A stretch of 64,000 bases of DNA from Bacteroidaceae bacterium (GCA_017651315.1 JAGCDE010000056.1:49474-113473); one strand, 5' to 3'. Positions 8,991 through 62,515 are shown, counted from the first letter of the stretch. Notes: generated from the sequence alone by a model not told the origin. Program-made: numbers and translations.

Positions 8991-9021
8991 CAAAGGTACT
9001 CGTTTATACCGAATCCACAAA
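8991..9021 (-). promoter_or_regulatory. candidate Bacteroides sigma-A type promoter for the tRNA gene
   Basis: The minus strand reads TTTG (9021-9018), a 19-nt spacer, then TACCTTTG (8998-8991). This matches the -33 TTTG / -7 TAnnTTTG consensus and ends 45 nt upstream of the mature tRNA 5-prime end. Confidence 0.45.
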
Positions 9022-44660: not shown

Positions 44661-45419
44661 TTATTTCAGTTTGAAATAGTAGGTTATGGTACCTGTCTGG
44701 TTGTTGACACCGTTCACGGCATTGAATCTGGTCTTCAGAGCGGCCTCCTCCGCACTCTTCCTCAGCTGCAGGTTGGCGGTGTTTGTGCGGTTGTTTATCT
44801 GGGTCTTGATGACGTTGCCCTCAGGGTCAACCGTTATCGTCAGCACGACACGTCCCTCCTCCTGGATTCCATCGTATGCAGGACGGGGCAGTTCGCCCAG
44901 CATGTCACGTCCGCCAAGATCCCATGTCCCGTAGCTTCCTGTCCCCACGGTTGCCCCCTGTGTGGAGTTGCCCTTAGGAGAGCCTGGAGTTCCGGGAACA
45001 TCGTCCGGCTTGGGTTCCTCGCCGCTTGACTGCATGTTGCGGCTGTTACCGAACACATTGGCCATCAGGTTCTGGGCCTCCTCCTGCACCCTGCGCTCCT
45101 GGTCGGCCACCGATTCCTCCTCCACCTTGTCAAGCGTCACGGTCTCCTCCAGATCCTGGGTGATGGTGACATCGGCATCGGGAACTGTGGGCTGGGGCAC
45201 GCTCACGGAGGCCGGGGCGGGAAGCTCCGTTATATCCGTGAACTCATAGTCTGTGTCCAGATTGCCCATGTCGCCGAGCTCCACGGGGATGCCGCTCTCC
45301 GCCTGCAGCACAGGCTTGTTCAGATGCAGTAAGAGCAGCAGCAACACCACTCCGCCATGCAGCAGCAGCGTCCACAGCAGCGACCAGAAACTGAACTCCC
45401 TCTCCTTCTTCTTCATCAC
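44661..45419 (-). CDS. tonB: energy transducer TonB family protein
   Basis: 252 aa. It has an N-terminal TM anchor (LLWTLLLHGGVVLLLLLLHL), an acidic/Pro-containing linker, and a C-terminal TonB fold (EGRVVLTITVDPEGNVIKTQI...AEEAALKTRFN). It lies directly downstream of exbB-exbD. Confidence 0.75.
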   Translation of the reverse strand: MMKKKEREFSFWSLLWTLLLHGGVVLLLLLLHLNKPVLQAESGIPVELGDMGNLDTDYEFTDITELPAPASVSVPQPTVPDADVTITQDLEETVTLDKVEEESVADQERRVQEEAQNLMANVFGNSRNMQSSGEEPKPDDVPGTPGSPKGNSTQGATVGTGSYGTWDLGGRDMLGELPRPAYDGIQEEGRVVLTITVDPEGNVIKTQINNRTNTANLQLRKSAEEAALKTRFNAVNGVNNQTGTITYYFKLK

Positions 45420-45425
45420 TAAACT

Positions 45426-45839
45426 TTATTTGCGGTCCGGACGGCGTGTGGCAAGCACCATCCGGAACTGATTCTCATTGGCTATATTCAGCACCTTCAC
45501 AATCTCCTTGTAAGGAACGGACTCGTCGGCATAGAGGGCCACATACATGTCCGGTTCCTTGCCGGAACACTCGATAAGGAAATCCGCAAGCTCATCAAAC
45601 ATGATGGGCATCTCGTCATCATTCCCGAAAGCCGTGTAGTAGTTCAGGTCCCGGTCGATGATCACGCGTGTCAGCGGTTTGGCCGATGTCTGCTGCGAAC
45701 TCTGGGGCAGCAGCACCTTGATGGCGTTGGGGCTGACCATTGTCGATGTTATCATAAAGAATATCAGCAGCAGGAATATGATGTCGGTCATGGACGACAT
45801 GCTGAACTGCGGCGATATCCTGTTCTTGCGCTTGAGCAT
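45426..45839 (-). CDS. exbD: biopolymer transporter ExbD/TolR family
   Basis: I trimmed the start from 45908 to MLKRKNRISPQFSMSSMTDIIFLLLIFFMITS (ATG 45837-45839). The single TM segment plus periplasmic domain is typical of ExbD. Confidence 0.85.
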   Translation of the reverse strand: MLKRKNRISPQFSMSSMTDIIFLLLIFFMITSTMVSPNAIKVLLPQSSQQTSAKPLTRVIIDRDLNYYTAFGNDDEMPIMFDELADFLIECSGKEPDMYVALYADESVPYKEIVKVLNIANENQFRMVLATRRPDRK

Positions 45840-45840
45840 A

Positions 45841-46563
45841 TCACTTGCCTGAATTAACGGTAAACTCCTGAATGAAATACTCCATCTCATTGGCAATCCT
45901 GTCAACACGGGTCACCAGATAGTTGTAGGCGAAAAGGGCAATGATACCTACAATCAGACCGCCCACAGTGGTGATCATGGCCTCATATATTCCGCCCGAC
46001 AGCAGCGACACATCAATGTTGTTGCCCGCATTGGACATCTCCCAGAAGGCGCGGACCATACCTATCACCGTCCCGAGGAAACCAATCATTGGGGCGGCGC
46101 TCGCTATGGTCGCCATCCCTGACAGGCCCTTCTCAAGCCTTGAAATCTCAATGTTGGCGGCATTCTCCATACCTGCATGGATATCCTTGCTGTCCAGGCC
46201 ATAGAGGCCGATACCCTTCTCCACTATGCGGCTCAGCGGTGAATTAGTGGCCTTGCACAGTATCTGGGCCGACTTAATCTCACCGTTCTTCATGTAATCC
46301 TTGATACGGTCCAGGAACGACGGATCCTTGACAGTAACTTTCCTATAGACTGCAATCCTGTTGAAAAAGATATAGAAACAGATGAGCGACAGTATCAGGA
46401 GGACTATCATGATCCATCCTCCCTTGGTAGCCATCTCAAACAGATTCATACGGTTTGCACTCTCTTCGGCCATCTGGATCGCCATCTGGCCATCAGCGGC
46501 AACATTGTCTCCAAGAGCCTGTGCCAGCGATGTGGTTTGTAAAAACATATTCATATAATGCAT
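45841..46563 (-). CDS. exbB: MotA/TolQ/ExbB proton channel family protein
   Basis: 240 aa with three TM segments. [20 protein letters not shown] and [18 protein letters not shown] are conserved ExbB/TolQ motifs. Confidence 0.85.
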
Positions 46564-48310: not shown

Positions 48311-48386
48311 CAGCCGCAGAACTGTCTGATGCCGCAGGGTGGCTTTGGTATTGCCACCCCGCCTGCATCAGGCAGCCCTGCGGCTG
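48311..48386. repeat. 76-nt nested imperfect palindrome in the convergent nadK / BACON-gene spacer (possible bidirectional terminator or structured RNA)
   Basis: The outer 9-bp stem CAGCCGCAG (48311-48319) / CTGCGGCTG (48378-48386) is perfect. The middle stem is CTGATGC / GCATCAG. The inner stem is GGGTGGC-TTTGGTATT-GCCACCC. No U-tract follows on either strand. Confidence 0.45.
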
Positions 48387-48425: not shown

Positions 48426-51400
48426 CTACGGGCAAACGGGCCGGACTGAATTACCGCGGTTACGGTATACGATGCTCGTGCCGTGATAGCCGGAATCGAA
48501 GTAGAGCTCCACCGCGTAGTACGGACCGCCAGAGTGGAGCGAAGAAGACCAGTGGTAGCCGCCCTCTCCCGCGTCGTACAGGCTCGTACCGCCGCGCCAC
48601 CCGGCAGCAGGGAGGAAAATAAAGCGGTCTGTGTAACCGGACTTCTTGCTGGTTACCTTATAACCGGCCACACCATTAAACTCTGCGTTGCCACTGCTGT
48701 ACCAGGTCCAGGTGCAGTTACTGCGTAATTCTTCCTGTTCATCCATGGTGGACATGCGCCAATCACCGCCCCACTTTACATGGGCTACGTCATCCTCCGG
48801 GTCAAGGGTGGTCTTGTTATCTACTGTACCGTATGAACTGTCGGTGTTATATTTCGTAAGGGTTGAACTTGAACCGTTGCACCACTTGTAGGTGGACCAG
48901 GAGTAAGTGCTCTTGGTTTCTGTTTCACCCCAAGCATAGTAATCGCCATAGTTCTCTGGTTTTTCCGCACCAATATTGCAGGTGGCCCATTTCACACTCA
49001 GGCCAAGGTCAACGTACTCATGTGCAGCTTCCTTCTTTTTGGGGCAAACCGGACGGACAGGCAGACCAACATAACGGTAATTCACATAGTCCTGATAGCA
49101 GTAATATGAGTCAAAACTGAGTACACAGGAGTAATCCGTTATGTCCGGATACATTGTGTTGGACCAGTAGCAGCCGATAGCGTTGACTCCGGTCAGACTG
49201 GTGTCATCGAAATACCCGGCGGCAGGAATGAATATTGAGCGGTCGGTGTAACCGGGAACATTACTTGTGACTGAATATCCTATTACGCCGTTCCGTGTAG
49301 TCCAGGTCCATGTGCACATTTTACGGAGCTCATCCTGCTCTTCCTTCGACGGCATACGCCAGTCGCCGCCCCACATCAGCTGCACCACATCATCATCACT
49401 GTCAAGAACAGTCTTACTGTCGGTAAAACCGTTGTATCCGAAATTACTGTCAGAATTGTATTTGGTTAGTGTTTTATCCGACCCCTTGCAGTATCTGTAT
49501 GATGCCCATGAATATCCGGCCGATTTCCCGGATTTCCATACCAGAGATGCAGACTGGACAGAACCGTCCTCATAATAGGGTTCTGTCTCACCCCAGGCGA
49601 AATAGTCCCCGGATTCCTCAGGTTTGGCGGCACCCACATTGAAGGTGGCCCAATTGACACTCAGTCCCAAATCAACATACTCATAATCATTGGTAACAGG
49701 TTTGACGGAAAAATCCTGAGTGACATTTATCGCCACGGACAAGGAACCGCTTGTAAGATCGCTTAAACTGACATTCACCACACCTGAACGGTTTGAATCG
49801 CCATCATTCTCTGTTGCAGTGATTAAGAATCGTGTGTCAGTCTCCTTAGATACAGTCAGCCAGTCAGCATCAGTCGAGATTTCAGGTACTCCATCGGTGG
49901 AAATTGTTATCGGTTCCGATGTCCCGCCCTTTTGGAAGAACTCAAGCCTCTCTGTCGATACGGTCAGATAACGGGCAGCCTGACTCACGGTGACACGTAC
50001 CGGATTGAAGCCCTCGGGCGTAATCACTATGCTTCCCTCACGGGCTGCAGCCGACGGATTGTCCGCGGTGGTGACAATCAGGTCGCAGTCCCCGCTACCT
50101 TCCGGTTCAGAAAGCGTAATCCAGCTGTCGCTTGCCACAGCACTCCAGTTGTTGTTGCTCTTCAGGCTGACCTGGGAACTGCCTCCCTTGGAGGTGAATT
50201 CAAGGGCCTTGGACGAAACATTCAGGAACTTGCCGTTCTGATATACCGGAACCGTGAGCTGCCGACCTTCCGTCAAGGCAGTCACGGAACCCGTCCTTAC
50301 GGTGTCCGATCTGTTCTCAGTCACGCTTACCTGCACTTTGGCGCTGCCGGTGCCGGATTCAGGACTCAACGTTATCCACGGCGCTGATGACATGACCGTC
50401 CACTCTCCATCAGAAACGACAGAGAAATAAGAGCTTCCCGCCTTGTCCGAAAAATAGAGAGCCGTGGAATCAGTATTGAACACATGACCGCTCTGCCTGA
50501 TCTCAATAGTCTCGGGAGCATCGAGACTTACCGGAGAGACCTGTACCGAGGCACTCCTTTCATCCATGTGGGGATTGGCTGATACCCTGATCCCGACCTG
50601 ACTGTCCCCGTCACCGGATGCCGGCCCGATATTTATCCATGACGGCACTCCTCCGGCAAAACTCCACGGGACATTCGATTTGAGCGAGAGTGTCTCCTCC
50701 CCGCCCGACACAGGCAATTCAATCAGTGTCCTGTCAATGCTGAACCTTATGGAATCCTGGCTGACCGGAATCTCTATCTTGTTCTCGTCGGACAGGACGA
50801 GATAGACATATCCGTGACGGCCGGACTTGGAATTGTTGGCGGTAACCTCAACCGTCACCGTAAAATCCCCAGCCTGTCCCGAGGCCGGCTTGACATCTAT
50901 CCAGGCAGCGTTTGTCTCAGCTGTCCATGGAGCCTCGGAACTCACCGCAACGGGTTCCGACTCACCTTCCACAGCAAGGAACAGGCGTTCCGTGGTGCTG
51001 ATAATCCTCGCTGGCCGCTGTACCACTGTGAGGTATTCCACACCGTCGGCAGTGGAGACTTCCACTGTCCCTTCACGCGATGTTTTCCCTGTATTAGGCG
51101 TCACGGAGAGACTGATGCTGCCGTCGCCCTTAGTTACCGTACACCATGTCATGGAACTGCCGGCCTTCACTGTCCATTCATCGGTATTTGACTCCACTGA
51201 AATATTTCTTGTGCCGGCGGTACCGTCAAACTCAGCCCTGTCCGTCTCAAGTGTCACTATTGACTTAGCTTTAGGTTGTGACACCGTAAGAGTGGTGCTG
51301 TAGTTCCACTCTCCATCTGCGGATTTCAGGGTGAAAACTCCCGTACGCCCGATTGTCGATTCATTCTCTGACACCGTAACCGTCACCGTAGCATCGCCGC

Positions 51401-51662
51401 TACCTGACATGGGCTTGACAGTAATCCAGTCCGGCACACCGGTAATCTCCCAGTTTATGTTATTTGATTTCACGCTGAATGTCGAGCTTTGGGCATCGGA
51501 CGAATTGAACTGGACCGATCCGGACGACACGGAGAGGCTGATGGGCTTGAGACTGATGACCGCGTTGGTATAGTTCCTGGGGCCATCCTCCCTGCACGAC
51601 GAGAATGAAATCATTATGAATGCGGCAACCGCATATATGGCCGATATAAGAGTCCTTTTCAT
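48426..51662 (-). CDS. surface lipoprotein with about 7 BACON-like repeats and two tandem C-terminal ~205-aa lectin-like (FISUMP/DUF1566-like) domains; gene 5 of the operon
   Basis: 1078 aa. The lipobox is MKRTLISAIYAVAAFIMISFSSC. The repeated ~80-aa units follow the pattern ...F.V.SN..W......WI.....G.G......V..N....R.G.V.L, for example FSVKSNNINWEITGVPDWITVKPMSGSGDATVTVTVSENESTIGRTGVFTL. The two C-terminal repeats both contain YVDLGLSV.WAT.N.GA..PE..GDY.AWGETE, WGGDWRM....E..EL...CTW.W, IF.PAAG and VRPVCP. Confidence 0.7.
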   Translation of the reverse strand: MKRTLISAIYAVAAFIMISFSSCREDGPRNYTNAVISLKPISLSVSSGSVQFNSSDAQSSTFSVKSNNINWEITGVPDWITVKPMSGSGDATVTVTVSENESTIGRTGVFTLKSADGEWNYSTTLTVSQPKAKSIVTLETDRAEFDGTAGTRNISVESNTDEWTVKAGSSMTWCTVTKGDGSISLSVTPNTGKTSREGTVEVSTADGVEYLTVVQRPARIISTTERLFLAVEGESEPVAVSSEAPWTAETNAAWIDVKPASGQAGDFTVTVEVTANNSKSGRHGYVYLVLSDENKIEIPVSQDSIRFSIDRTLIELPVSGGEETLSLKSNVPWSFAGGVPSWINIGPASGDGDSQVGIRVSANPHMDERSASVQVSPVSLDAPETIEIRQSGHVFNTDSTALYFSDKAGSSYFSVVSDGEWTVMSSAPWITLSPESGTGSAKVQVSVTENRSDTVRTGSVTALTEGRQLTVPVYQNGKFLNVSSKALEFTSKGGSSQVSLKSNNNWSAVASDSWITLSEPEGSGDCDLIVTTADNPSAAAREGSIVITPEGFNPVRVTVSQAARYLTVSTERLEFFQKGGTSEPITISTDGVPEISTDADWLTVSKETDTRFLITATENDGDSNRSGVVNVSLSDLTSGSLSVAINVTQDFSVKPVTNDYEYVDLGLSVNWATFNVGAAKPEESGDYFAWGETEPYYEDGSVQSASLVWKSGKSAGYSWASYRYCKGSDKTLTKYNSDSNFGYNGFTDSKTVLDSDDDVVQLMWGGDWRMPSKEEQDELRKMCTWTWTTRNGVIGYSVTSNVPGYTDRSIFIPAAGYFDDTSLTGVNAIGCYWSNTMYPDITDYSCVLSFDSYYCYQDYVNYRYVGLPVRPVCPKKKEAAHEYVDLGLSVKWATCNIGAEKPENYGDYYAWGETETKSTYSWSTYKWCNGSSSTLTKYNTDSSYGTVDNKTTLDPEDDVAHVKWGGDWRMSTMDEQEELRSNCTWTWYSSGNAEFNGVAGYKVTSKKSGYTDRFIFLPAAGWRGGTSLYDAGEGGYHWSSSLHSGGPYYAVELYFDSGYHGTSIVYRNRGNSVRPVCP

Positions 51663-51668
51663 AATCTG

Positions 51669-53447
51669 TCAGAAGAATAGTTCCACACCTATGCTGAATG
51701 AAAAACCGCCGCACCAGTCCTTGACGAGACTCGACGTTTCGTCAATCCGGGTAGCAAGCTCACCCTTGCTCAAAGGGAAATCATACGCGGGAATGCACAC
51801 AATACCCACATGCGGGACAGGCGAATATCCGGCACGCACGCCAAACCTTCCGCTTACAACGAACGTCTTGTGGTCCATCCCCGTCTCCGTGCCGCAGTAT
51901 TTGCCGTCTATCCCGTTGAAGAGAAGCCCGAACCTCGGGGTGACCCGGAAACGGTTGCCAAGAAGTATCCCGTATCCGGCATGGACAGCAATTGCGTTTG
52001 CAAGACGGTATTCGTACTCCAGGCCATCCTGCCCGTTCCAGGATGACGGTTCAGCAATCCACCACACTCTCGTAGCCTTTGCGGAAGAAAGCAGGTATCC
52101 GCCTTCAATGTTGAAATTACCTATATAAGCTCCCGCAAAGGCATCCAGTCCCGACAAATGTCCAACCTCGTACCCGATACCGGCATAGAAATTGTTCTTT
52201 GAGAAAATCCTGCGCTCCAGGCTGAATGACAGTTCAGGATTGTCGGCATCAAGGTGAACCAGATTCCTGTAAGGGATATATCCCGGCTTTGTCAGGCTGA
52301 CCTCATAGTCACCCGATGAAACCTCGCCTGTGTAAGGAGTGAAGCCTAAGGGTTTGCCGTCAATGCCTAACGACGCTCCCTGAGGCTCGGATTTTACGGT
52401 TATGGTAAAGACATTGCTCATTTCGGCGTTGAAAGTGGCTATCTCACCCTCCTTCACCTCCACTTCCATCGTCAAGGGACGGTAATCCTGCTTCCGGAAC
52501 TCAACATTGCGTCTGCCAATGAGAATCTCTCCCTTGAGAAGCGGAGTGGTGCCCACCTCCACGCCATCCACAAAGACCGTAGCCCCGATGGGCTGGCTCG
52601 TCACCGAAATAGTCCCGTATATCGGTTGGGGCAACGGCAGGGTGACTCTCTTTTCATCCTGCGGCTGAAGGGTGAAGGATGTGGTGCGGGTGGTATGGCT
52701 TTCACGCCTCACCTCCACCTGGTACATGGCGGCGTCAAGCTCGCCTGTCCATGAGCCTTTACCCACTAAAGTGCCGTTGAGATAGATTTCGGCCTCCTGC
52801 ATGGCGCAGTCCAGTGTAACCTTTCCGCGCGATGATTTCAGGTTGACCTCGCGCATGATGCGTTCCCGGCCCACATCCACGATTCCGTTCTCGGACAAAT
52901 AGCCGGGAGCATCGACACGGTAGGAGTGCGTGCCGTAAGAGAGGAGCTGCGATACCGTACCGTCCGCCTGAAGCCCGTAGGGAGTGTTGTCAATGGTCAC
53001 AATGGCATTCTGAGGAGTGACACTGAAGGTGACATACTGTGCGGCCACCTCATCCTCGACAATGGTTCTGACACGGCCGGATATGAGCCTCATCTCGTAT
53101 GTACGCGCACGCTCAATCGGGATAGGGAAATAATACTCAACCTGTCCGAGCTGCTGGTGCATTATCTTTATCCTCTGGAGGCCGCGCGGCACATAGACCC
53201 ACACCTCCGAGACCTTCTGGACTGTCTTGACTATACCGAGCATTCCACCATCGAACGCGAAACCGGTCTCGGTGGTGATTATCTTGATGAGGGCTGCTAT
53301 CTCACCGTTCTGGTCACGCTCTATCGTGCCGTAAGTGTTGGCGGTCAGGTCATTCTCCAACAGGCGGAAGCTCTCTACCGACAGGCTCTGGGCATTAGCA
53401 CAGAGAGTAAGCAAAAACAACAGAATGGTGATAATATGCCGTTTCAT
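51669..53447 (-). CDS. PEGA-repeat protein fused to a C-terminal outer-membrane beta-barrel; gene 4 of the operon
   Basis: 592 aa with signal peptide MKRHIITILLFLLTLCANAQ. After a ~105-aa N-terminal domain come 4-5 PEGA-like units, for example ISVTSQPIGATVFVDGVEVGTTPLL...GRRNVEFRKQDY and ITVKSEPQGASLGIDGKPLGFTPYTGEVSSGDYEVSLTKPGY. The last ~170 aa are Gly/aromatic-rich amphipathic strands ending IGVELFF. Confidence 0.7.
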   Translation of the reverse strand: MKRHIITILLFLLTLCANAQSLSVESFRLLENDLTANTYGTIERDQNGEIAALIKIITTETGFAFDGGMLGIVKTVQKVSEVWVYVPRGLQRIKIMHQQLGQVEYYFPIPIERARTYEMRLISGRVRTIVEDEVAAQYVTFSVTPQNAIVTIDNTPYGLQADGTVSQLLSYGTHSYRVDAPGYLSENGIVDVGRERIMREVNLKSSRGKVTLDCAMQEAEIYLNGTLVGKGSWTGELDAAMYQVEVRRESHTTRTTSFTLQPQDEKRVTLPLPQPIYGTISVTSQPIGATVFVDGVEVGTTPLLKGEILIGRRNVEFRKQDYRPLTMEVEVKEGEIATFNAEMSNVFTITVKSEPQGASLGIDGKPLGFTPYTGEVSSGDYEVSLTKPGYIPYRNLVHLDADNPELSFSLERRIFSKNNFYAGIGYEVGHLSGLDAFAGAYIGNFNIEGGYLLSSAKATRVWWIAEPSSWNGQDGLEYEYRLANAIAVHAGYGILLGNRFRVTPRFGLLFNGIDGKYCGTETGMDHKTFVVSGRFGVRAGYSPVPHVGIVCIPAYDFPLSKGELATRIDETSSLVKDWCGGFSFSIGVELFF

Positions 53448-53466
53448 CAGTCTTTAAATGAAGTGG

Positions 53467-55320
53467 TTAATCAAAATCAGGCAATCCCGTGAAGTTCGGG
53501 TCACGCTCGGGCTGCCACACCCGCACCTTTATGACAGGCGCCTTGGGTTCGTTCAGGTCAACCATCAGGAACAGGTAACCGGTGTCGCCATAGTTGCTTG
53601 AATAATAGTCCTGCCTGATCTGTATGGCGTATGTCTCGTCGCCCTTGCCTGCCTTCACTATGTCATTTTCCGCAAAACGGATGTTTATGAACTCATTGCT
53701 CTCGAAACAACGCTCCAGATTACGCAGATACTGCTCCTTTGACTGGCGGTTCAGCACAACATATCGGTTGTTCATATACTGACGGCCGGCATCATCGGTC
53801 TCAGGCCGTGTCAGGACCTTGCCTGTTATGATTACGGCATTGTCGTCAAACACCTGACGCAGGTAGTCAAGACGCTTCAGCGAGTATGCGGTCTTGTAAT
53901 TCTCAAGGAACTCGGTCAGAATCTTGCGGGCGTATTCACCCCATGCCGCATGGTGCAGGATGTCATCGGCCGCACGCTCGTCAAGTCCGAATGCCAGACA
54001 GTCTATCATCTTGTCCGCATTGAAAGTGAAGGTGATGTTCTCCACAAACTGACGCACGTTGCCCTTGAATGAGAAGTTTATGGGAATGCTGCGGCATACC
54101 ACCTCGTCACCTATGGCTATATAGCTCGGCTCGGGATTACCCACAATCCGGCCCTTGCCGTATGACACGAGCCGGTTGAACATATCCCAGCCGTCGGCCG
54201 TGAACAGACCGGCCACGGAACCGTAGTCCGAAGTCCTTATGGCCGAAATGACGGCATCTATCTTTTTCCTGTAAGGTTCCGACTCTTTCACGTCAAGACA
54301 AGCAAGAGGGCTTCTTTCAGGTTCGAGGTCAACAAGCACTGCACCTTCCTGTTCCGTTACGGATTCTGTTGCCGAAGCGGTCAAGGGCACTGACAAAACA
54401 ACATCCGACGCTGTTTCCGGCAGTTCCCCCTCCACTCTACGCGTAGCGTTGCGGAACACCCCGCCGCGCATGACCTCAACCACCTGGGCTATCTCCTTGT
54501 CGATATGAGCCTCGCCGTAATACTCGTACTCGCACTTGACCTGTATGTTGTCGGTCGATGCACCCGGCCGCATCTCCAGTACGCCACGGCCATCCCGGGC
54601 ACTGTAAAGGTTACTCCAGTTCATCCCGTCAAAGTACGAATAGTCCAAGCTTGATACAGGACTCCCGTGATAGAGAACGCTTAGCTCAATGTAATTGCCC
54701 TTCTGGTTGCTCCTTACGAATTGCACCCCATCCAGTATTCCGTTAATCTGGTCCGGTATCCAATGGACAAGCACATTGCCCGCCTCATTGGTCACCGCGT
54801 TGGAGTTGGGAAGGCTCTGGAGCAGACAATAGCCCCAGTAATAGTAACGCAAAGCATCGTCAATCTTACCTTTCTCCTCAGCCCTGCCGGCACTTGCCAG
54901 CATGTCAAGGACCTTGGCCTTCCTCGATTCGAAAATCCTGAATACATCAGCACGCTTCACGAACCGGAACACCTCGGCATCCGGTTCCTGCCTGACAATG
55001 ATGCGCTCGGTATTCTGGAGCGTAGCCTGCGAATATGTAGATATAACTGACCTGACAGCTGAATTTGCATCAATGCCCTCGGATGATACCACCTCCTCCT
55101 CCACACTGCTGAAATCACTCTGAACCGACACCGAAATCTTGCTTATCAGACTCTTCAAGGCATCATTGTCGGCCTCGCGCAGAGTGCGCCCGAATCCCTC
55201 GCCGTATATATAGTCACTGCTCTCCCTGATCTCATCGATGCTTTGGGACCAGGCTACCGCCGGCAGGAACAGCAACAATCCGGTTATAAATCTTTTCAGG
55301 TACATGACTCTATTCTGCAA
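53467..55320 (-). CDS. secreted hypothetical protein with an N-terminal LPP20/FlgP-like module; gene 3 of the operon
   Basis: 617 aa with signal peptide ...LLLFLPAVAWSQ. The N-terminal YGEGFGRTLREADNDALKSLISKISVSVQSDFSSVEEEV fits the LPP20-type pattern. The rest has no motif I can name, and the C-terminal ~130 aa look like an alpha+beta cone (NTF2-like?) by eye only. Starting at Met-6 (55305) would remove the 11-nt overlap with the upstream gene. Confidence 0.55.
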   Translation of the reverse strand: MQNRVMYLKRFITGLLLFLPAVAWSQSIDEIRESSDYIYGEGFGRTLREADNDALKSLISKISVSVQSDFSSVEEEVVSSEGIDANSAVRSVISTYSQATLQNTERIIVRQEPDAEVFRFVKRADVFRIFESRKAKVLDMLASAGRAEEKGKIDDALRYYYWGYCLLQSLPNSNAVTNEAGNVLVHWIPDQINGILDGVQFVRSNQKGNYIELSVLYHGSPVSSLDYSYFDGMNWSNLYSARDGRGVLEMRPGASTDNIQVKCEYEYYGEAHIDKEIAQVVEVMRGGVFRNATRRVEGELPETASDVVLSVPLTASATESVTEQEGAVLVDLEPERSPLACLDVKESEPYRKKIDAVISAIRTSDYGSVAGLFTADGWDMFNRLVSYGKGRIVGNPEPSYIAIGDEVVCRSIPINFSFKGNVRQFVENITFTFNADKMIDCLAFGLDERAADDILHHAAWGEYARKILTEFLENYKTAYSLKRLDYLRQVFDDNAVIITGKVLTRPETDDAGRQYMNNRYVVLNRQSKEQYLRNLERCFESNEFINIRFAENDIVKAGKGDETYAIQIRQDYYSSNYGDTGYLFLMVDLNEPKAPVIKVRVWQPERDPNFTGLPDFD

Positions 55321-56824
55321 AATCTATCTTGTGGACAGTGGGAAGCGTCGTTCCGAACTGGCTCATACACTGTCCTACCGTTGATCTGAGATATGTAGGG
55401 TCAGCAATAGTGAAGATACGGCCCTCAACATCGTATCTGACTCCGTTCACCTCATAATCCAAAGCCACTGCAGTGGCCATGTGACCGGGATATTCAGTAC
55501 CTATGACATCATATCCCATGAGCTCATGGACAAGATAGGAGAAAAGCACTGCACGGTCCTCACAGTCGCAGTACGGATAATAGAACAGCTCATCGGCATA
55601 AAAATACTTCTCGGTCCCGAACTGCTCCTGGTCGGTCTCGTAGGCAAAAGCCAGCTGCACGAACTGCAGGAGGAAATTCAGGGCAGTCGGTTTGTCCATC
55701 TCCTCCACAATCGGTCTCAGGTTGGCCTCAATGGATTTCCTGAGCTGTGGCGAAGGAGAGGCTTCGAAGAAAATCTCATACTGTGCAAGAGGCAAGGAGT
55801 TGTAATAATCAATCAGTCCTGAATCAAAATTGAACTCAAAACTGTACTCCTTATCCTGGAAAGTGAAAGAAAGTGAGCGTATTGAATCCTCGCCGAACCT
55901 TAACGGCCTTCTTTGGCCGAATTCAAGCTGACGCCCGTCAGCGTAATTGCCACGATATGTATAAATACCGGTATTCGATTCATTCGCCACGATATAATAC
56001 TTCCGTTCGTCTATGTTCAGATAGTTCAACCCGTAAAGAGTGGTACCGGTAGGCAGGAGCAATACTACTCCGTCATTATTGTAGCCGGTCCTTACGTCCA
56101 AACCGGAACGAGTCATCATGAACCATGTAAGCAATAACGCACAGTTCCTGTCAGAATACATCTCACCGGAGAACCTGCTCACAAGGATATAATAGCCCCA
56201 GTCGTTCAATCCCATCTCCTCCTTCTTTTCCAGAAGAGCCTTCACTGTTGAAGTGTAATTGTATTCGGAAACTGTTTTCCAGAACTCGGCAATCTCCTTC
56301 TGTCCGTATTTGTTCTTTCTGAATGTTTTGATTCTCTGGTCTATGGGAATGGAACATCTGCGGCCAAAGAAATCGAAACGGACGCTGTTTATATCATCAA
56401 TCAGTTCAACTTCGACAGGCTTGCAAGGCAGGGAATCAATGTTCACCGGCAATTCCCCGACTTCCGATACTGACTTTATAGCCGTAACCTCATCAATCGC
56501 GACAGGTTCAGGCATGGGTTGGACAGGAATATCCACATCCACCTTGGGAACCACCACCGGTTTAGGCCGTTCAGGAATCTCATTTTTTAGGAAATCTGTG
56601 TAAAGAGTCCATTCGGAGCCACTCAGGAAGTCGGTCCATTCCAGGTCACGGTTGGCTATCACCCTGCCCCAGGCCTCCTTCCGGGCATCTAAGAACTCAT
56701 CCCAAATATTCTTCCTTTCCTGAAGTCTTGCCTCGGACCGGCGTTTGAGGGCATCGAAGTCAAGCTGGGCATGACTTACTATCGGTAATAAACAGAATAT
56801 GAGCAATCCTATTATCCGCTTCAT
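55310..56824 (-). CDS. secreted protein with a C-terminal transglutaminase-like (papain-fold Cys-His-Asp) core; gene 2 of the operon
   Basis: 504 aa with signal peptide MKRIIGLLIFCLLPIVSHAQ. The C-terminal YPYCDCEDRAVLFSYLVHELMGYDVIGTEYPGHMATAVAL...RIFTIADPTY reproduces the Cys...His...Asp spacing and context of transglutaminase-core domains. Confidence 0.6.
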   Translation of the reverse strand: MKRIIGLLIFCLLPIVSHAQLDFDALKRRSEARLQERKNIWDEFLDARKEAWGRVIANRDLEWTDFLSGSEWTLYTDFLKNEIPERPKPVVVPKVDVDIPVQPMPEPVAIDEVTAIKSVSEVGELPVNIDSLPCKPVEVELIDDINSVRFDFFGRRCSIPIDQRIKTFRKNKYGQKEIAEFWKTVSEYNYTSTVKALLEKKEEMGLNDWGYYILVSRFSGEMYSDRNCALLLTWFMMTRSGLDVRTGYNNDGVVLLLPTGTTLYGLNYLNIDERKYYIVANESNTGIYTYRGNYADGRQLEFGQRRPLRFGEDSIRSLSFTFQDKEYSFEFNFDSGLIDYYNSLPLAQYEIFFEASPSPQLRKSIEANLRPIVEEMDKPTALNFLLQFVQLAFAYETDQEQFGTEKYFYADELFYYPYCDCEDRAVLFSYLVHELMGYDVIGTEYPGHMATAVALDYEVNGVRYDVEGRIFTIADPTYLRSTVGQCMSQFGTTLPTVHKIDFAE

Positions 56825-56845
56825 AAACTTTCCGGATCTTGACGG

Positions 56846-57481
56846 TCACTTTACGCCAGCCTTGACAAATTCACTGATTCTCGACCCTAACTTCTGTGCA
56901 GCCTCACTCTCCTTCAAGGCCTGCTCGTATGCACGCACACGCGCTTTGGAGGCGGCATTCTCATCGACAATGAAATAGGTCTGCATTTCATAGACCGGGT
57001 CTCCCCCGTCCTTGTCAATCTGACGTATCAGGCTGAATTTCTCCTGCAGCTCACCCTGTATCTCCTTTTCCACAAGACGCTCGTAAGCGGCATAGAAATG
57101 GTCGAACTCATTGTTCAGGTTAAGCACATCCGATGCCATATCGCTTTCAATACGCCCTTTGACAAAACTGCCACACTGCTGGGCGTATGTCCGGCAAGCG
57201 TCATTTATCGCAGACTGATGACCTACCGTCTTGGATTTGAAACGGGAGGCGCTGCCCATTATTTCACGAACATTCCCATCAGCCTCGAGAGCCTCATAGA
57301 ACTTGGCGAGAGTGACATCAAGGGTTCGTGATGAACCGTACAGTTCCCATTTCCCTTTTTTGAGTTGCTTCATCTTGGCCTTGTACTCTTTCTTTAAGGC
57401 CTTGGAAAGATTCTGTGCCGAAACATTCATTACAGGAACCGCCAGAACAGCTGCGATGAGCAGAATCAGTATTCTCTTCAT
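56846..57481 (-). CDS. small secreted helical protein (possibly LPP20-like); gene 1 of the operon
   Basis: 211 aa with signal peptide MKRILILLIAAVLAVPVMNVSAQ. It is Lys/Glu-rich and helical. GSASRFKSKTVGHQSAINDACRTYAQQCGSFVKGRIESDM loosely resembles LPP20-type modules, but the assignment is weak. Confidence 0.45.
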   Translation of the reverse strand: MKRILILLIAAVLAVPVMNVSAQNLSKALKKEYKAKMKQLKKGKWELYGSSRTLDVTLAKFYEALEADGNVREIMGSASRFKSKTVGHQSAINDACRTYAQQCGSFVKGRIESDMASDVLNLNNEFDHFYAAYERLVEKEIQGELQEKFSLIRQIDKDGGDPVYEMQTYFIVDENAASKARVRAYEQALKESEAAQKLGSRISEFVKAGVK

Positions 57482-57519
57482 AAAACTCCTTATTATTAAA
57501 ATTGGTTAATTTTAAACTG

Positions 57520-57552
57520 CAAATATATCAACTTTTTCATCTTCTTTTCAAA
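57520..57552 (-). promoter_or_regulatory. candidate Bacteroides sigma-A type promoter of the five-gene operon
   Basis: The minus strand reads TTTG (57552-57549), a 21-nt spacer, then TATATTTG (57527-57520). This is a full match to -33 TTTG / -7 TAnnTTTG with canonical spacing, and it ends 38 nt upstream of the ATG at 57481. Confidence 0.5.
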
Positions 57553-57598: not shown

Positions 57599-57640
57599 AA
57601 CCCGCGAAAGATGGCTTGAATACACCATTCTTCGCGGGTT
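57599..57640 (-). terminator. strong stem-loop between the small ORF and the operon promoter (terminator candidate)
   Basis: AACCCGCGAA (57599-57608) pairs perfectly with TTCGCGGGTT (57631-57640). An inner extension, GATGG / CCATT, includes one G-U pair. On the minus strand it is followed by CTGTTAAC..., so there is no clean U-tract. Confidence 0.4.
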
Positions 57641-57690: not shown

Positions 57691-57843
57691 TTATGCGAGC
57701 ATGTCGGCATCGGGAGAATCCAGACCGGGAACCTGGCCGAACTCTCCACCCCAACGCTTGGGGGCATCCTTACTGCCGCACAGAATCTGCGCCGTCCTGA
57801 TCTCAACAGCCTCGGAAGCAGGTTTCGAATAATTCTTCTTCAT
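57691..57843 (-). CDS. unannotated 50-aa ORF (hypothetical small protein)
   Basis: It is below the ORF-track size cutoff. My translation is MKKNYSKPASEAVEIRTAQILCGSKDAPKRWGGEFGQVPGLDSPDADMLA-stop. The 153 nt are 56 % GC (85/153 by hand count), whereas the flanking spacers are about 30 % GC. It lies 57 nt downstream of the 1246-aa T9SS cargo gene on the same strand. Confidence 0.4.
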   Translation of the reverse strand: MKKNYSKPASEAVEIRTAQILCGSKDAPKRWGGEFGQVPGLDSPDADMLA

Positions 57844-57900: not shown

Positions 57901-58602
57901 TTACCTTATAATCACCTTGCGGCCATTGTTTATGTACAGGCCCGGTCCGGTGGGTGCGCCATCAAGACGGCGGCCGTACATGTCGTACCACTCGCCGGTC
58001 ATCACGTTGCCGGTCCTCATGTCCATAGTGCCCACTGCGGTCTCGGTGCCGTCACTGCCCAACAGACGCACCTTTATGCGGTCAGGTATGGCAGGTGTTG
58101 ATGCCACTCCTCTGCCTGGTGCCTGAAGGGCCTCATCGCTTCCAGAGTAGGTGAGATATGCACGGAACGGCTTGACTGTAGCGCCGTTGGCAGCCCTCAC
58201 GAACTCACCTGCGGTAATAGAAACCTCTGTTTCAACGGCATCTTTACCATTTGTTCCCGCGAATCCGAACACTTTACCGTTAAGATCAGTTCCATAAACC
58301 AGATTGGTGTAGGTGCCGCTGAACGTCCAATCGACACCGCCGGAATACGTGGACGTGGTGGAACCGGCTGAAATTGTTGCGGGCACGCTGCCAATAAAGC
58401 CACTGAAGGTGACATCACCTGTAGCACCCGGCATGAACAGATAGGGTTGATCGGCTACGGTGGGTGATGCAGCCAGGTTAGCTGCCTCCATCGTGGCAAC
58501 CCATCCCTCTGTATCATCGTAGGTCACATCGACAAACTCATAGAGCGTGCCGCCGCTGACACCGGTCATCGGGAAAGGCAGGCAGACGGTCGAGGCCACG
58601 TT
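57901..58602 (-). repeat. copy A of a ~700-bp duplicated 3-prime gene module (pre-CTD domain plus T9SS CTD)
   Basis: It aligns collinearly with 61808-62515. The first ~205 nt from the stop codon differ at only about 8 positions by manual alignment. Blocks such as GTGAGATATGCACGGAACGGCTTGACTGTAGC are identical. Similarity stops upstream of the NVASTVCLPFP codons. Confidence 0.85.
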
Positions 58603-61600
58603 CTCACTGAACGAGCGCATAAATGAGGTCTTGACATCAGTAGCACCCTGATAGTTGCTTATGAGTTTGGCCACCCCGTCAGTCTCGGTCAGCCGGAAAC
58701 TACCTGCATCCTGATGCACATTCAAACCGCGCTGGGGCAGGAACGGATAATAAACTGTTCCCTGACTGGAAGCGGGACTGGCAGGAACCTCACTGGAGTA
58801 GATGATGGAACCTGAGTCCGTTACCTTAATGAAAGCACCCTCTCCCGGAGCCAGCACCACGGAACCCTCATAGACATCAAATCCTTTACCCGAAGAGTTG
58901 AGTTTATAGAAAGTAGCAGCACCACTCTTACTATACGAGATTTCACCGTCACAGGTGTAAGGATTACCCACTAACTTCCAGCCGTTCAGTTCATCTGTGC
59001 AATCCGGGTCATAAGTCATGTCTTCCCGCATCTCATTCTGGTAACTTGACCATGTGGGACCAATGTAAAAGAAGTTCAAGTTCTCATTATTTGCATAGTA
59101 ATATCCGTTACCCCAAAGCATTCCGCTCTTGAAGAGGTCACTTTTGCTATCAGAATCGTATTTCGTAATCTTACCGTTAATCCATTCCATACCTGATGTA
59201 GCACCTGGGATAGCGTTCAAAGTACATGTGGGATCAAAGGCATATAAGTCATATTTATCCGTTGAACCTATCAAATAATCAACCATATCACAGTCAAGAC
59301 CGTTTCTATTTATTTCAGTTCTACCGATAACAGGACTGGAAATGAGATTATCAGTGCCGCCGGTAACGCTCTTCTTCATGGTCATTTTCAACGAGGAGGC
59401 ACCTTGTTTAAGCTGGGCACCTTCCTCAATGGTTATGGAAGCGCCATTCAGAATGACTTTCATAGCCTGGGCTGTCACACCGGCAGGAATGGTAACAGCA
59501 GCATCTATGCGCACCTTATTATCATAGGTGGGAACGCCATTGGGCTCCCAGCTGCCATCTACATTCCAATCACCCGAGTTTCTGAACACCTTCAGATTTG
59601 AGGTCATGAATGAGCCAGTGGCCCAACTGCTTTTCCCATTTTCTTCTACACTTCTCACCTGCCAGTAATACGGGGAATCCGCATACAGACCAGTAGCCGA
59701 ATATGAATTATCGTTGACTGTTATTGGGTCAACATTATCTGGACATACAAATATACCAAAACTCTCATTGCTGTCACTGATATAGTTTCTTGCCTTGAAA
59801 GACAGGGTTCCACCAAGTTTTACACCGGATATGATCAACCAGTCATCAGGTGAAAGCCTAGTATCCCATACCATACTTTTTGAATCATAGCCCTTGTTTC
59901 CGTTGAAATAATAATTATTGTAAGAATCTTGTGACCTTCCATAAGTGCCAAGATCCCAACCAGAACCATCACCGTCCAGGTCTATTTTAGTAATCGCCTG
60001 AGAAATCTCGTCTGCTTCAAAATCCTCAGATAAGATGGTATTATTTTGATCATCAGTCAGCACAATGTCATCAATAAGCAAGCGCGACTGACCAATCACA
60101 TCATAGTGGCGGATAACGATTGAACCGTTGCCGCTGTAATTGCTCAAATCAAAGCTGTACGTGGTCAGTTTTCCAGTTACGACAACATCCTTGCCTATTT
60201 GTACCCACGGTTTCAATAGCAGTTCATAACCGTTGTTGTTACCTTCCCAACTAAGCGTAGCACTGTGTCCAGTCACCTCTGTTGCGGTCAGATTAGTAGG
60301 CACTGCTAAAGGCATTACATTTGAATTGCAGTCAACATCATAATAGGCAGGGGCAGTCATGGCGCCTTCTCCAGAGAATATTACTACTCCGTTATTGTTC
60401 TTCACTGTGTAAGAACACTCATCGTCATAATTATAGCCCCAATAAGTTGAGCCAGCACTAATCCACTCGAATTTGATTTCCTTACTGTCGGGAACATTGA
60501 GAGTAGTAGTCTTTGATGTTCCGCTTTCCAAGGTGACTGTTCCAAGAAGATAATTGCTTTCATTTTCCTCAACTACATATACTTTAATGGCAGCTCCATT
60601 CCATCCATTACTTTCTGTGTTATTAAGAAGTTCAAACGTAATTTGGCACATGTCCTCAGGAGCGCAATAGTCAGTGGTAAAGGTGACGGGGTCGGACCAT
60701 TCACTAACATTATCACCGTTTTTGGCACGAACCATCACTGTATATTCCGTCTTATATTGTAAACTCAATGTATAGGGATTTTCTGTGACTGTCGTGGGCT
60801 GAATAACATCATTAACACTTATCTCAAAACTCGTCTCACTACTGCTCCAACTCAACTCCACCTGTGAACCACCAGTATAGTTTGCTGCAAGAGACTTAGG
60901 TGTTGACACTTCGCCACTAAGAACAGAATTTATGCGAATCTGGTTCTTAACATCTATTAGAGTATGTTCATTCCAAATATCTTCACCAACAAAGCTTGTT
61001 GGATTGAACGGATCCAGAAAAACACTTTGCTTTTCATAGCCATCGTCTTGTATGTATAAAGACTGTTTTTCAGCTTCAAATACACTAAAATAAAGCAAAC
61101 CAAGGGTTTCTTTCGACTTATCATAAGTAACAATCACTATGTTGTTGCTTCCGTCATAAAAGAATGGATTGGTTAACGTAATCGTTGTCCAGGCCTCAAC
61201 ATCAAAAGTCACTTCACCACTGAAACAAAGGTCATTTTCAGTGATATTCACCCAGTCAAGATTATTTTCAAAAGAGGTTTTGTCGGTGCTGACTATGTAG
61301 ATATCCAAGTTACGAGTAAAATCTTCAACAGGATCATAGGCCCACCATTCGTCTTTTGCATAATAGAAATCAATACTTTGGATGATACCTGCTGAACTGC
61401 CCAACTCATCAGCAGTATAGATCTGCTGTGTCAGAGAATAGCCATAACTAATATTAGTAGGAATATTATAATCAATTTCTGACCCTGAGCCTATCGTAAC
61501 GGCAGGAATGGGGTTGGGATCCTGTGCCTTTGCTGTCCCAAGTAAGAACAGCAGTGCAATTATGGTCAGAATGACCTTGGAAGCTGCAAGGAAATGTAGT

Positions 61601-61641
61601 GATTTTCCTTGTTTTTGTACCATAGAAGAGTAAATATTCAT
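57901..61641 (-). CDS. large multidomain cell-surface protein with a T9SS C-terminal sorting domain (Fn3 repeats and lectin/adhesin-like beta-sandwich domains)
   Basis: 1246 aa with signal peptide ...IIALLFLLGTAKAQ. An Fn3-like segment is LAANYTGGSQVELSWSS...YTVMVRAKNGDNVSEWSDPVTFTT, and a second is PTNLTATEVTGHSATLSWEG. The C-terminus ...RIKVRLLGSDGTETAVGTMDMRTGNVMTGEWYDMYGRRLDGAPTGPGLYINNGRKVIIR fits type A Por/T9SS sorting domains. Confidence 0.8.
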   Translation of the reverse strand: MNIYSSMVQKQGKSLHFLAASKVILTIIALLFLLGTAKAQDPNPIPAVTIGSGSEIDYNIPTNISYGYSLTQQIYTADELGSSAGIIQSIDFYYAKDEWWAYDPVEDFTRNLDIYIVSTDKTSFENNLDWVNITENDLCFSGEVTFDVEAWTTITLTNPFFYDGSNNIVIVTYDKSKETLGLLYFSVFEAEKQSLYIQDDGYEKQSVFLDPFNPTSFVGEDIWNEHTLIDVKNQIRINSVLSGEVSTPKSLAANYTGGSQVELSWSSSETSFEISVNDVIQPTTVTENPYTLSLQYKTEYTVMVRAKNGDNVSEWSDPVTFTTDYCAPEDMCQITFELLNNTESNGWNGAAIKVYVVEENESNYLLGTVTLESGTSKTTTLNVPDSKEIKFEWISAGSTYWGYNYDDECSYTVKNNNGVVIFSGEGAMTAPAYYDVDCNSNVMPLAVPTNLTATEVTGHSATLSWEGNNNGYELLLKPWVQIGKDVVVTGKLTTYSFDLSNYSGNGSIVIRHYDVIGQSRLLIDDIVLTDDQNNTILSEDFEADEISQAITKIDLDGDGSGWDLGTYGRSQDSYNNYYFNGNKGYDSKSMVWDTRLSPDDWLIISGVKLGGTLSFKARNYISDSNESFGIFVCPDNVDPITVNDNSYSATGLYADSPYYWQVRSVEENGKSSWATGSFMTSNLKVFRNSGDWNVDGSWEPNGVPTYDNKVRIDAAVTIPAGVTAQAMKVILNGASITIEEGAQLKQGASSLKMTMKKSVTGGTDNLISSPVIGRTEINRNGLDCDMVDYLIGSTDKYDLYAFDPTCTLNAIPGATSGMEWINGKITKYDSDSKSDLFKSGMLWGNGYYYANNENLNFFYIGPTWSSYQNEMREDMTYDPDCTDELNGWKLVGNPYTCDGEISYSKSGAATFYKLNSSGKGFDVYEGSVVLAPGEGAFIKVTDSGSIIYSSEVPASPASSQGTVYYPFLPQRGLNVHQDAGSFRLTETDGVAKLISNYQGATDVKTSFMRSFSENVASTVCLPFPMTGVSGGTLYEFVDVTYDDTEGWVATMEAANLAASPTVADQPYLFMPGATGDVTFSGFIGSVPATISAGSTTSTYSGGVDWTFSGTYTNLVYGTDLNGKVFGFAGTNGKDAVETEVSITAGEFVRAANGATVKPFRAYLTYSGSDEALQAPGRGVASTPAIPDRIKVRLLGSDGTETAVGTMDMRTGNVMTGEWYDMYGRRLDGAPTGPGLYINNGRKVIIR

Positions 61642-61807: not shown

Positions 61808-62515
61808 TTACTTAATAATCACCTTGCGGCCATTGTTTATGTACAGGCCCGGTCCGATGGGTGCGCCATCAAGACGGCGGCCGTACATGTCGTACCACTC
61901 GCCGGTCATCACGTTGCCGGTCCTCATGTCCATAGTGCCCACTGCGGTCACAGTGCCGTCACTGCCCAACAGGCGCACCTTTATGCGGTCAGGTATGGCA
62001 GGCATACCGGAACCGTCTCTGCCGGGGGCCTGCAGGGCCGCCTCTTCGCCATCATAGGTGAGATATGCACGGAACGGCTTGACTGTAGCACCCACGGCAG
62101 CCCTTACGAATTCACCGGCGGTTATTGACACATCTTTGTCTTCTGCATCCTTTCCATCGCCGTCTGAAGCAGCGAATCCGAACACTTTACCATCAAGATC
62201 AGTTCCATAAACCAGGTTGGTGTAAGTGCCCTGGAATGTCCAGTCACCGCCACCGGAATAAGTGGACGTGGTCGAACCGGCTGTAACTGTGGCAGGAACA
62301 CTGGCAATCACACCGCTGAAGGTCACATCACCTGTAGCACCTGGCATGAACAGATAGGGTTGGTTCGCGACAGTGGGCGTTTCGGTCAGATTGGCAGCCT
62401 GCATCGTAGCCACCCATCCGTCGGCACTGTCATAGGTCACATCGACAAACTCATAGAGCGTGCCGCCGCTGACACCCGTCATCGGGAACGGCAGGCATAC
62501 GGTCGAGGCCACGTT
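61808..62515 (-). repeat. copy B of the duplicated 3-prime gene module
   Basis: See copy A. The duplicated DNA also produces the near-identical spurious plus-strand ORFs 57917-58126 and 61779-62057 in the ORF track. Confidence 0.85.

Follow-up and report, generated by a model that had tools for sequence, protein, structure and literature searches.

The lpp20 operon of Helicobacter pylori (Lpp20/HP1456, HP1454 and HP1457) encodes several exported proteins of one fold class, which are associated with the outer membrane and whose role is unresolved (PMC11756786). HP1454 and Lpp20 interact with FapH and with FlgP, a protein that assembles itself into a disk beneath the outer membrane (PMC11756786). 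Here we describe a five-gene operon, A to E, that combines an LPP20-type protein with predicted components of a quite different kind. It lies at positions 48426-57552 in a stretch of 64,000 nucleotides from a Bacteroidaceae bacterium (GCA_017651315.1, JAGCDE010000056.1:49474-113473); this whole stretch is called the window, and positions are counted from its first letter. By comparing related genomes we show the cluster to be a conserved and, as far as sequence can tell, self-contained module of anaerobic Bacteroidota. Its folds are all of known kinds and their conserved combination fits none of the systems compared, so that it appears to be new as a system. The operon consists of five packed open reading frames (ORFs) flanked by a Bacteroides-type promoter and a strong hairpin:

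57520-57552, minus strand: promoter, TTTG (-33), 21 nt, then TATATTTG (-7), 38 nt upstream of the A start
56846-57481, minus strand: gene A (ORF scan), 211 aa, small predicted secreted protein, accessory member of the module
55310-56824, minus strand: gene B, 504 aa, predicted secreted protein with a transglutaminase/LapG-like C-terminal domain
53467-55305, minus strand: gene C from its ATG, 612 aa, predicted secreted, non-lipidated protein with an LPP20/HP1454-like part and two NTF2-like domains
53467-55320, minus strand: gene C from an alternative TTG start at 55320, 617 aa
51669-53447, minus strand: gene D, 592 aa, predicted outer-membrane protein with a signal peptidase I (SPI) signal, an N-terminal head (Dn), four PEGA repeats and a C-terminal beta-barrel
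48426-51662, minus strand: gene E, 1078 aa, predicted lipoprotein with seven BACON repeats and two DUF1566/Lcl_C-like repeats
48311-48386: nested inverted repeat of 76 nt between the convergent genes E and NAD kinase

Protein C belongs to the LPP20 family (PF02169) by both sequence and fold, this being a domain family only and not a functional system, and its N-terminal part matches the fold of Lpp20 and HP1454. In contrast to Lpp20 and FlgP, C lacks the lipobox Cys, and it adds two NTF2-like domains; the H. pylori operon, for its part, has no PEGA-barrel, transglutaminase-fold enzyme or BACON/lectin lipoprotein. With the FlgP and FlgT proteins of Campylobacter, Vibrio and Helicobacter the operon has the LPP20 fold family in common, and a few members of the A family show weak FlgT_N matches. 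It differs from the flagellar disk or H-ring (FlgP, FlgT, FlgO) in that flagellar genes are absent from this region of the window and from the related loci, and C is about four times the size of FlgP; to our knowledge, Bacteroidales are non-flagellated. The likeness to the Lap system of Pseudomonas and Legionella lies in B, whose catalytic domain has a LapG-like fold with Cys-His-Asp and is predicted to be periplasmic. However, B stands outside the BTLCP/LapG Pfam family and matches no PDB chain by sequence, so that the similarity is at fold level only; B has some 350 additional N-terminal residues, and its distant homologues carry an SBBP beta-propeller. LapD, the inner-membrane c-di-GMP receptor, a type I secretion system (T1SS) and a giant RTX adhesin with its N-terminal retention module are all missing from the operon and the related loci, and Dn is not followed by a conserved di-Ala. 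Protein E recalls a polysaccharide utilization locus (PUL), being a lipoprotein with BACON repeats, which are typical of PUL surface proteins (SusE/F-like or glycoside hydrolase lipoproteins). The SusC-like TonB-dependent transporter and the SusD lipoprotein are nevertheless absent from A to E (no Plug, TonB_dep_Rec or SusD) and neither recurs in the 30 related loci described below; glycoside hydrolases and regulators are absent both here and there. The first-pass annotation of the window, which had found no SusC/SusD pair, glycoside hydrolase, ATPase, regulator or transporter inside the operon, was correct on this point.

More distant systems fitted no better. As to the type IX secretion system, A to E contain neither PorK/L/M/N-type components nor Por_Secre_tail, FGE-sulfatase or GldM/N domains, FGE-sulfatase occurring only as a neighbour in two distant loci. 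The autotransporter (type V) model TIGR01414 gave E=0.062 and 12.3 bits against a cut-off of 16; an autotransporter translocator has 12 strands and about 250-300 aa, while the barrel of D spans about 180 aa and matches OMP_b-brl instead. Neither curli/CsgG nor Pel (PelB/PelC) domains were found in A to E with Pfam and NCBIfam. For anti-phage defence, the only PADLOC match was that of A to a candidate model, at 14.8 bits, and altogether NCBIfam and PADLOC gave no real matches for A to E. Our full-text literature search found no description of an LPP20 and PEGA protein cluster, nor of an LPP20-type system in Bacteroides. The proposal that the operon matches no characterised system therefore holds across Pfam, NCBIfam, PADLOC, PDB sequences, Foldseek and the literature, which place neither the proteins nor the set.

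The ORF scan returned exactly the five minus-strand ORFs that had been proposed, and the spacings follow from the coordinates: 21 nt between A and B, -11 between B and C, 19 between C and D and 6 between D and E, with C counted from its TTG. The ATG at 55305 leaves a gap of +4 nt after B; since this Met is nearly invariant in the homologues and NCBI annotates the 612-aa form, it is most likely the true start of C. NCBI names the products of A to E hypothetical, hypothetical, LPP20 family lipoprotein, PEGA domain-containing protein and hypothetical, respectively. The predicted promoter at 57520-57552, read in the sequence as the first-pass annotation had it, fits the Bacteroides promoter consensus. 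The pattern TTTGN19-21TANNTTTG occurs twice in the 64-kb window against 0.25 expected, and no shuffle contained it twice; its sole other exact match is at 8991-9021 (minus strand). In six related loci (L003, L007, L009, L016, L018 and L025) a motif of this kind precedes the first module gene by 34-60 nt. At the other end, the predicted palindrome was borne out: its arms measure 29 nt each (48311-48339 and 48358-48386) with inner perfect stems of 9-10 nt, and the 136-nt intergenic RNA between E and NAD kinase folds at -70.3 kcal/mol (z = -6.5), which none of 200 shuffles equalled. This inverted repeat is likely to be a bidirectional terminator; the T-run typical of intrinsic terminators is not present at 48311-48386, for which the intrinsic-terminator listing has no entry. 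Signal sequences were judged by eye and not by a predictor. On such inspection A, B, C and D carry SPI-like signals with an A-x-A|Q-type site and E a lipobox, FSSC|REDG, in agreement with the four SPI signals and one FSSC lipobox claimed before. We thus show A to E to be one transcription-unit-like cluster, all five of whose products are predicted to leave the cytoplasm. Rfam families were not detected between 47000 and 58500, and paralogues of A to E were not found elsewhere in the window.

In order to define a comparison set, the conserved motifs of C were scanned against one genome per GTDB species, which gave 30 loci, all from uncultured Bacteroidales that inhabit the gut of horses, ruminants, deer and other hosts, and all their ORFs were clustered into families. 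The carriers include Candidatus Colenecus caballi as well as Bacteroidaceae, Cryptobacteroides, Rikenellaceae and Prevotella metagenome-assembled genomes (MAGs), and every carrier found is a MAG. Four families recur, namely C and the D/E type (29 loci each), A (23) and B (20); any further family is confined to four or fewer of the 30 loci, which means that the flanks are unrelated. The gene order takes at least four forms:

A-B-C-D-E: window, L003, L004, L020, L032
(E)-D-A-C-B: L005, L009-L014, L028
A-C-B-E: L007, L016, L018
minimal C-D(-E): L017, L024, L025, L029

Scattered homologues, which would have spoken against the first-pass annotation, were not observed: the families are syntenic in the 30 loci. 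There is no single order of the five genes, and E varies. Sequence identity to the closest relatives is about 80% for A, about 75% for C, about 50% for B, 30-48% for D and about 30% for E; in relatives where C is 74-79% identical, B reaches only about 50-57%. That C is far more conserved than B, D or E fits a hub. Seven distant environmental loci, in which C is 31-37% identical, retain part of the arrangement: a D protein containing Dn is adjacent to C in five of the seven and about 4 kb away in L036, and a long form of B lies within 4-7 kb in three of them. Taken across these genomes, C and D make up the ancient core of the module, with B often linked, A and E as accessory members, and D and E multiplying and varying.

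Some individual loci deserve mention. In a red-deer Bacteroidales MAG (L015, 4244-21332) a co-directional array holds six D paralogues, two full C genes and one truncated C, and one of the six D paralogues carries Sel1/TPR repeats instead of the barrel. A contig labelled Oribacterium sp. (Firmicutes; L023, CAVKKI010000054.1) has a complete Bacteroidales-type module, D-E-x-A-C-B, where x is a 551-aa ORF without assignment; this contig was probably mis-binned. Proteins with FGE-sulfatase and Fib_succ_major domains are recurring neighbours in the distant C and D loci (L033, 4697-9650; L038, 2623-7974; L036-L038). Non-catalytic FGE-domain proteins of the OCTIN superfamily reportedly form high-order periplasmic oligomers, some of them with PEGA extensions (PMC5915273).

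The first-pass annotation had recognised one or two LPP20/FlgP-like modules, and the one in C is well founded. Residues 29-115 of C match Pfam LPP20 at E 5e-7, with 30.5 bits against a gathering cut-off of 25.9, next to a weak match to Cds6_C, an NTF2-like family. In the AlphaFold2 (AF2) model an LPP20-type domain is followed by a helical hairpin with a beta-sandwich, a disordered linker and two NTF2-like domains; Foldseek aligns the model with Lpp20 (5ok8, probability 1.0), HP1454 (4kzs, 0.97) and many NTF2/ketosteroid-isomerase folds (1.0). A sequence search of C against all PDB chains gave nothing significant. The signal of C ends in PAVAWS|QS without a Cys, and the family consensus is likewise without a lipobox Cys. 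Altogether, C appears to be a soluble periplasmic protein; of all the components it is the best conserved, and it forms the core of the module. At E<=1e-30 its family comprises 697 clusters at 50% identity, each counted by one representative, and extends over environmental Bacteroidales, Tenuifilaceae and Cloacimonadota. The second LPP20-like module, placed in A, did not stand. Among 24 A-family members Pfam gave a marginal FlgT_N match in three and a marginal LPP20 match in one, and hhalign between the A and C families was not significant (probability 2%); A as an LPP20-like module was rejected as unsupported. Protein A, which has an SPI-type signal with a VSA|Q site, matches nothing in Pfam, NCBIfam or the PDB sequences and received no confident assignment. 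Its homologues adjoin C where they occur.

For D, Pfam finds four PEGA repeats (1.6e-37) where four to five had been announced, and the proposed C-terminal barrel ending in Phe is seen as a region of about 180 aa closing with ...GVELFF. No significant match was obtained for D against all PDB chains by sequence. The first ~105 mature residues form a family-specific head domain, Dn, which all 31 D paralogues in the related loci have kept. An aromatic beta-signal closes most of these paralogues, while Sel1/TPR repeats replace the barrel in some; that Dn is kept across C-terminal parts so different is the pattern expected of a shared docking element. The reading of Dn as a divergent PEGA repeat was rejected (hhalign probability 2%), and so was a LapG-type di-Ala cleavage site after Dn, since the VAAQ of D in the window is not conserved in the 31 paralogues.

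Protein E also has the architecture announced for it, about seven BACON repeats and two lectin-like ones. Pfam finds seven BACON repeats (7e-63) and Lcl_C/DUF1566 at 4e-5, under the cut-off; the two C-terminal lectin-type repeats of about 215 aa each match the same targets, and the C-terminal region has no significant match among all PDB chains by sequence. Across the loci nearly all E-type proteins show a lipobox followed by acidic residues, as seen by eye, while the E-type genes vary in number and architecture from locus to locus. E is thus best regarded as a variable accessory component, judging from these comparisons. Giant E-type lipoproteins are encoded directly downstream of B in L005 (13641-19163, 1840 aa) and L009 (13716-19199, 1827 aa), and each of these two proteins gives 12 tandem matches to the DUF1566-like lectin region of E.

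Protein B has a long N-terminal helix, a Pro-rich linker, an alpha/beta domain and a C-terminal Cys-His-Asp domain. Its AF2 model (predicted local distance difference test, pLDDT, 84; predicted template modelling score, pTM, 0.83) is matched by Foldseek to LapG (4u65_E/4fgp, probability 0.97-1.0, TMt ~0.5), and also to PNGase, vasohibin and BDI_1141 and other Bacteroidales 'putative proteases'. At the level of the modelled fold this confirms the C-terminal domain as a transglutaminase-like cysteine protease fold, in agreement with the Cys-His-Asp core named earlier. C421, H448 and D475 are invariant in an alignment of 40 sequences reaching down to 29% identity, and so are D420, E422 and R424; the nucleophile sits in a D-C-E-D motif, which presumably resembles the Ca-binding surroundings of the LapG cysteine. 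The top Foldseek match by E-value for full-length B is a BDI_1141-type protein (PDB 3kd4), which like B is secreted, comes from Bacteroidales and has two parts and a transglutaminase-like core; the overall superposition is nonetheless poor (TM 0.14, root-mean-square deviation 20 Å), and the BDI_1141 family is itself uncharacterised. B has no Pfam family (E<=0.1) and no NCBIfam or PDB sequence match. The B-family profile finds only CylK in the PDB, via the beta-propeller of long variants, which B in the window does not have. These long variants of about 860-880 aa, among them forms of 875 aa, add a C-terminal SBBP/CylK-like beta-propeller (L002, 10001-12649; L035, 13657-16275; L038, 14031-16616; L039, 887-3517). 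By eye, every listed B homologue except that of L030 has an SPI-type signal ending in (A)Q. In L035 the gene right after the long B encodes an MltC/SLT lytic transglycosylase.

We tentatively favour a reading in which the module builds an outer-membrane-anchored periplasmic scaffold with exchangeable surface lectin lipoproteins and B as a processing enzyme; we regard it as quite possible. The barrel of D would sit in the outer membrane. A barrel with an even number of strands starts and ends on the periplasmic side, so the PEGA stalk and Dn head of D would project there, and C, possibly together with A, would bind the conserved Dn heads. C may oligomerise into a scaffold under the outer membrane, as FlgP does. 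The E lipoproteins would be located on the surface or on vesicles, in association with the barrels, and supply exchangeable glycan-binding or adhesive modules, and B would cleave, or less likely cross-link, one of the partners in the periplasm. The biological role would be that of an envelope or adhesion structure and neither nutrient import nor secretion. This reading draws on the anatomy of the operon, the fold assignments, the synteny of the 30 loci, the ancient linkage of C and D, the mutually consistent predicted compartments, the Dn pattern, the conservation of C and the FlgP precedent.

Several observations weigh against it. The Pfam match of D to OMP_b-brl (residues 418-546, E 1e-5) is slightly under the cut-off, and the 8-10 strands that would give the barrel an OmpA-like size are deduced from its length. 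The AF2 model of C is only moderate (pLDDT 67, pTM 0.40), and a ring or lattice of C would be pure analogy. A conserved cleavage motif after Dn was not found in the 31 D paralogues. The surface exposure proposed for E depends on a sequence rule, by which acidic residues after the lipobox Cys go with surface or vesicle export. A peptidoglycan-binding or inner-membrane component is not present in the cluster. Besides, homologues of B at about 35% identity also stand alone, without A, C or D, so B may have a general role outside the module and unrelated to it.

A bolder form of the scaffold reading, which we hold to be rather unlikely, adds an undescribed supramolecular structure under the outer membrane of Bacteroidota that lack flagella. 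In it a ring or lattice of C would dock the Dn heads of variable PEGA-stalk barrels, the transglutaminase-fold enzyme would mature or remodel the assembly, and the barrels would serve to arrange exchangeable lectin lipoproteins at the cell surface or on vesicles. If true, such a structure would be a new type of organelle in the envelope; FlgP disks and PorK/N rings would be its counterparts in principle, but it would have nothing to do with motility or secretion.

The LapG-like fold of B leads to another, unlikely, explanation, a Lap-like release switch, in which B would cut the periplasmic part of the D stalk or of an E partner and so free or remodel an adhesin on a signal, with A and C sequestering B. 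It is indeed LapG structures that the B catalytic domain resembles most closely, its Cys-His-Asp triad is invariant, and the conserved B is found in company with D and E genes that are variable and adhesin-like. The switch is however deprived of its known parts, as the locus is without a LapD-like receptor, a T1SS or a giant RTX adhesin; B belongs to the LapG family neither by Pfam nor by PDB sequence, the di-Ala expected after Dn is not conserved, and loci with C and D lacking B exist (L017, L024, L025, L029).

Equally improbable is a glycan-binding or adhesion apparatus outside the Sus paradigm. The E-type BACON/DUF1566/FISUMP lipoproteins would here be the functional part and bind glycans of host, plant or microbial origin, with the D barrels as their membrane partners and A to C as factors of biogenesis or quality control that build no structure. 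This would account for the E-type genes being the most amplified and variable, up to 1840 aa with 12 lectin-region matches; Fib_succ_major and FGE-sulfatase-type neighbours recur in the distant loci, and all carriers found come from fibre-degrading gut or digester communities. Yet E is missing from several loci that keep C and D, the TonB-dependent transporter and glycoside hydrolase are absent, and neither BACON nor DUF1566 domains have an established binding specificity. Such high conservation of C would also be unusual for a mere biogenesis helper.

The predicted layout of D, in which a long periplasmic extension precedes a small C-terminal barrel, would also suit a device that tethers the outer membrane to the cell wall or spaces the two apart, which seems quite improbable. 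The periplasmic stalk of an OmpA-like D would reach the peptidoglycan, and B, which has a transglutaminase fold, would covalently join either the stalk or C to the wall or another protein, and the module would thereby set stiffness or vesiculation; the lytic transglycosylase gene beside the long B of L035 would agree with this. However, that neighbour occurs in one locus only, and Pfam and NCBIfam recognise no OmpA_C, LysM, SPOR or other peptidoglycan-binding domain. A tether leaves no role for the E-type surface lectins, and the distribution of the module is patchy, unlike that of a basic envelope tether.

That the five envelope genes are merely neighbours and form no system is scarcely credible and, as far as genomes can tell, largely refuted by synteny: Bacteroidales genomes are rich in secreted hypothetical proteins and stand-alone B homologues exist, but four families are found together in 20-29 of the 30 loci although their order changes and the flanks are unrelated, C and D remain neighbours at 31-37% identity, and the gaps are tight, with a single promoter and a single terminator.

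Should the module prove to be a functional unit, an envelope assembly not described before would be added to the phylum, which is dominant in the guts of animals and in anaerobic digesters. The module would then give a first functional context to PEGA-barrel proteins, to non-flagellar LPP20-fold proteins, whose role is unresolved in Helicobacter as well, and to a new branch of transglutaminase-fold periplasmic enzymes. None of the roughly 700 clusters of the C family has a described function. In genomes from herbivore guts the D and E genes have multiplied, a hint that the module may serve in attachment to fibre, mucus or other cells, which would be relevant to colonisation and vesicle cargo. 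The module is not tied to a long-standing open question, and its occurrence so far in uncultured organisms only makes tests hard.

The operon is flanked by housekeeping genes (NAD kinase, PdxJ, ExbBD-TonB) or by adhesin-like genes. A genomic island was rejected, as the G+C content of the operon (0.51-0.54) matches that of the whole window and mobility genes are absent. On the downstream side, beyond PdxJ and NAD kinase, an ExbB/ExbD/TonB-like trio (44661-46563, minus strand), identified by reading translations, belongs to the housekeeping context. On the upstream side, a GC-rich hairpin at about 57599-57640 and a 50-aa ORF, MKKNYSKPASEAVEIRTAQILCGSKDAPKRWGGEFGQVPGLDSPDADMLA, separate the operon from two adhesin-like genes. 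This ORF (57691-57843, minus strand) lies between an adhesin-like gene and the operon promoter, with the hairpin after it; Pfam finds nothing in it, and the related loci contain no homologue. It was rejected as a module member together with the two fn3/cleaved-adhesin genes, which have no homologues in any related locus either and are set apart by the hairpin and the promoter. These two large genes (57901-61641 and 61808-63919, both minus strand) encode paralogous surface proteins with fn3 and Cleaved_Adhesin domains; a C-terminal region of about 280 aa is common to them at 75% identity, and the local G+C content is lower, at 0.41-0.48.

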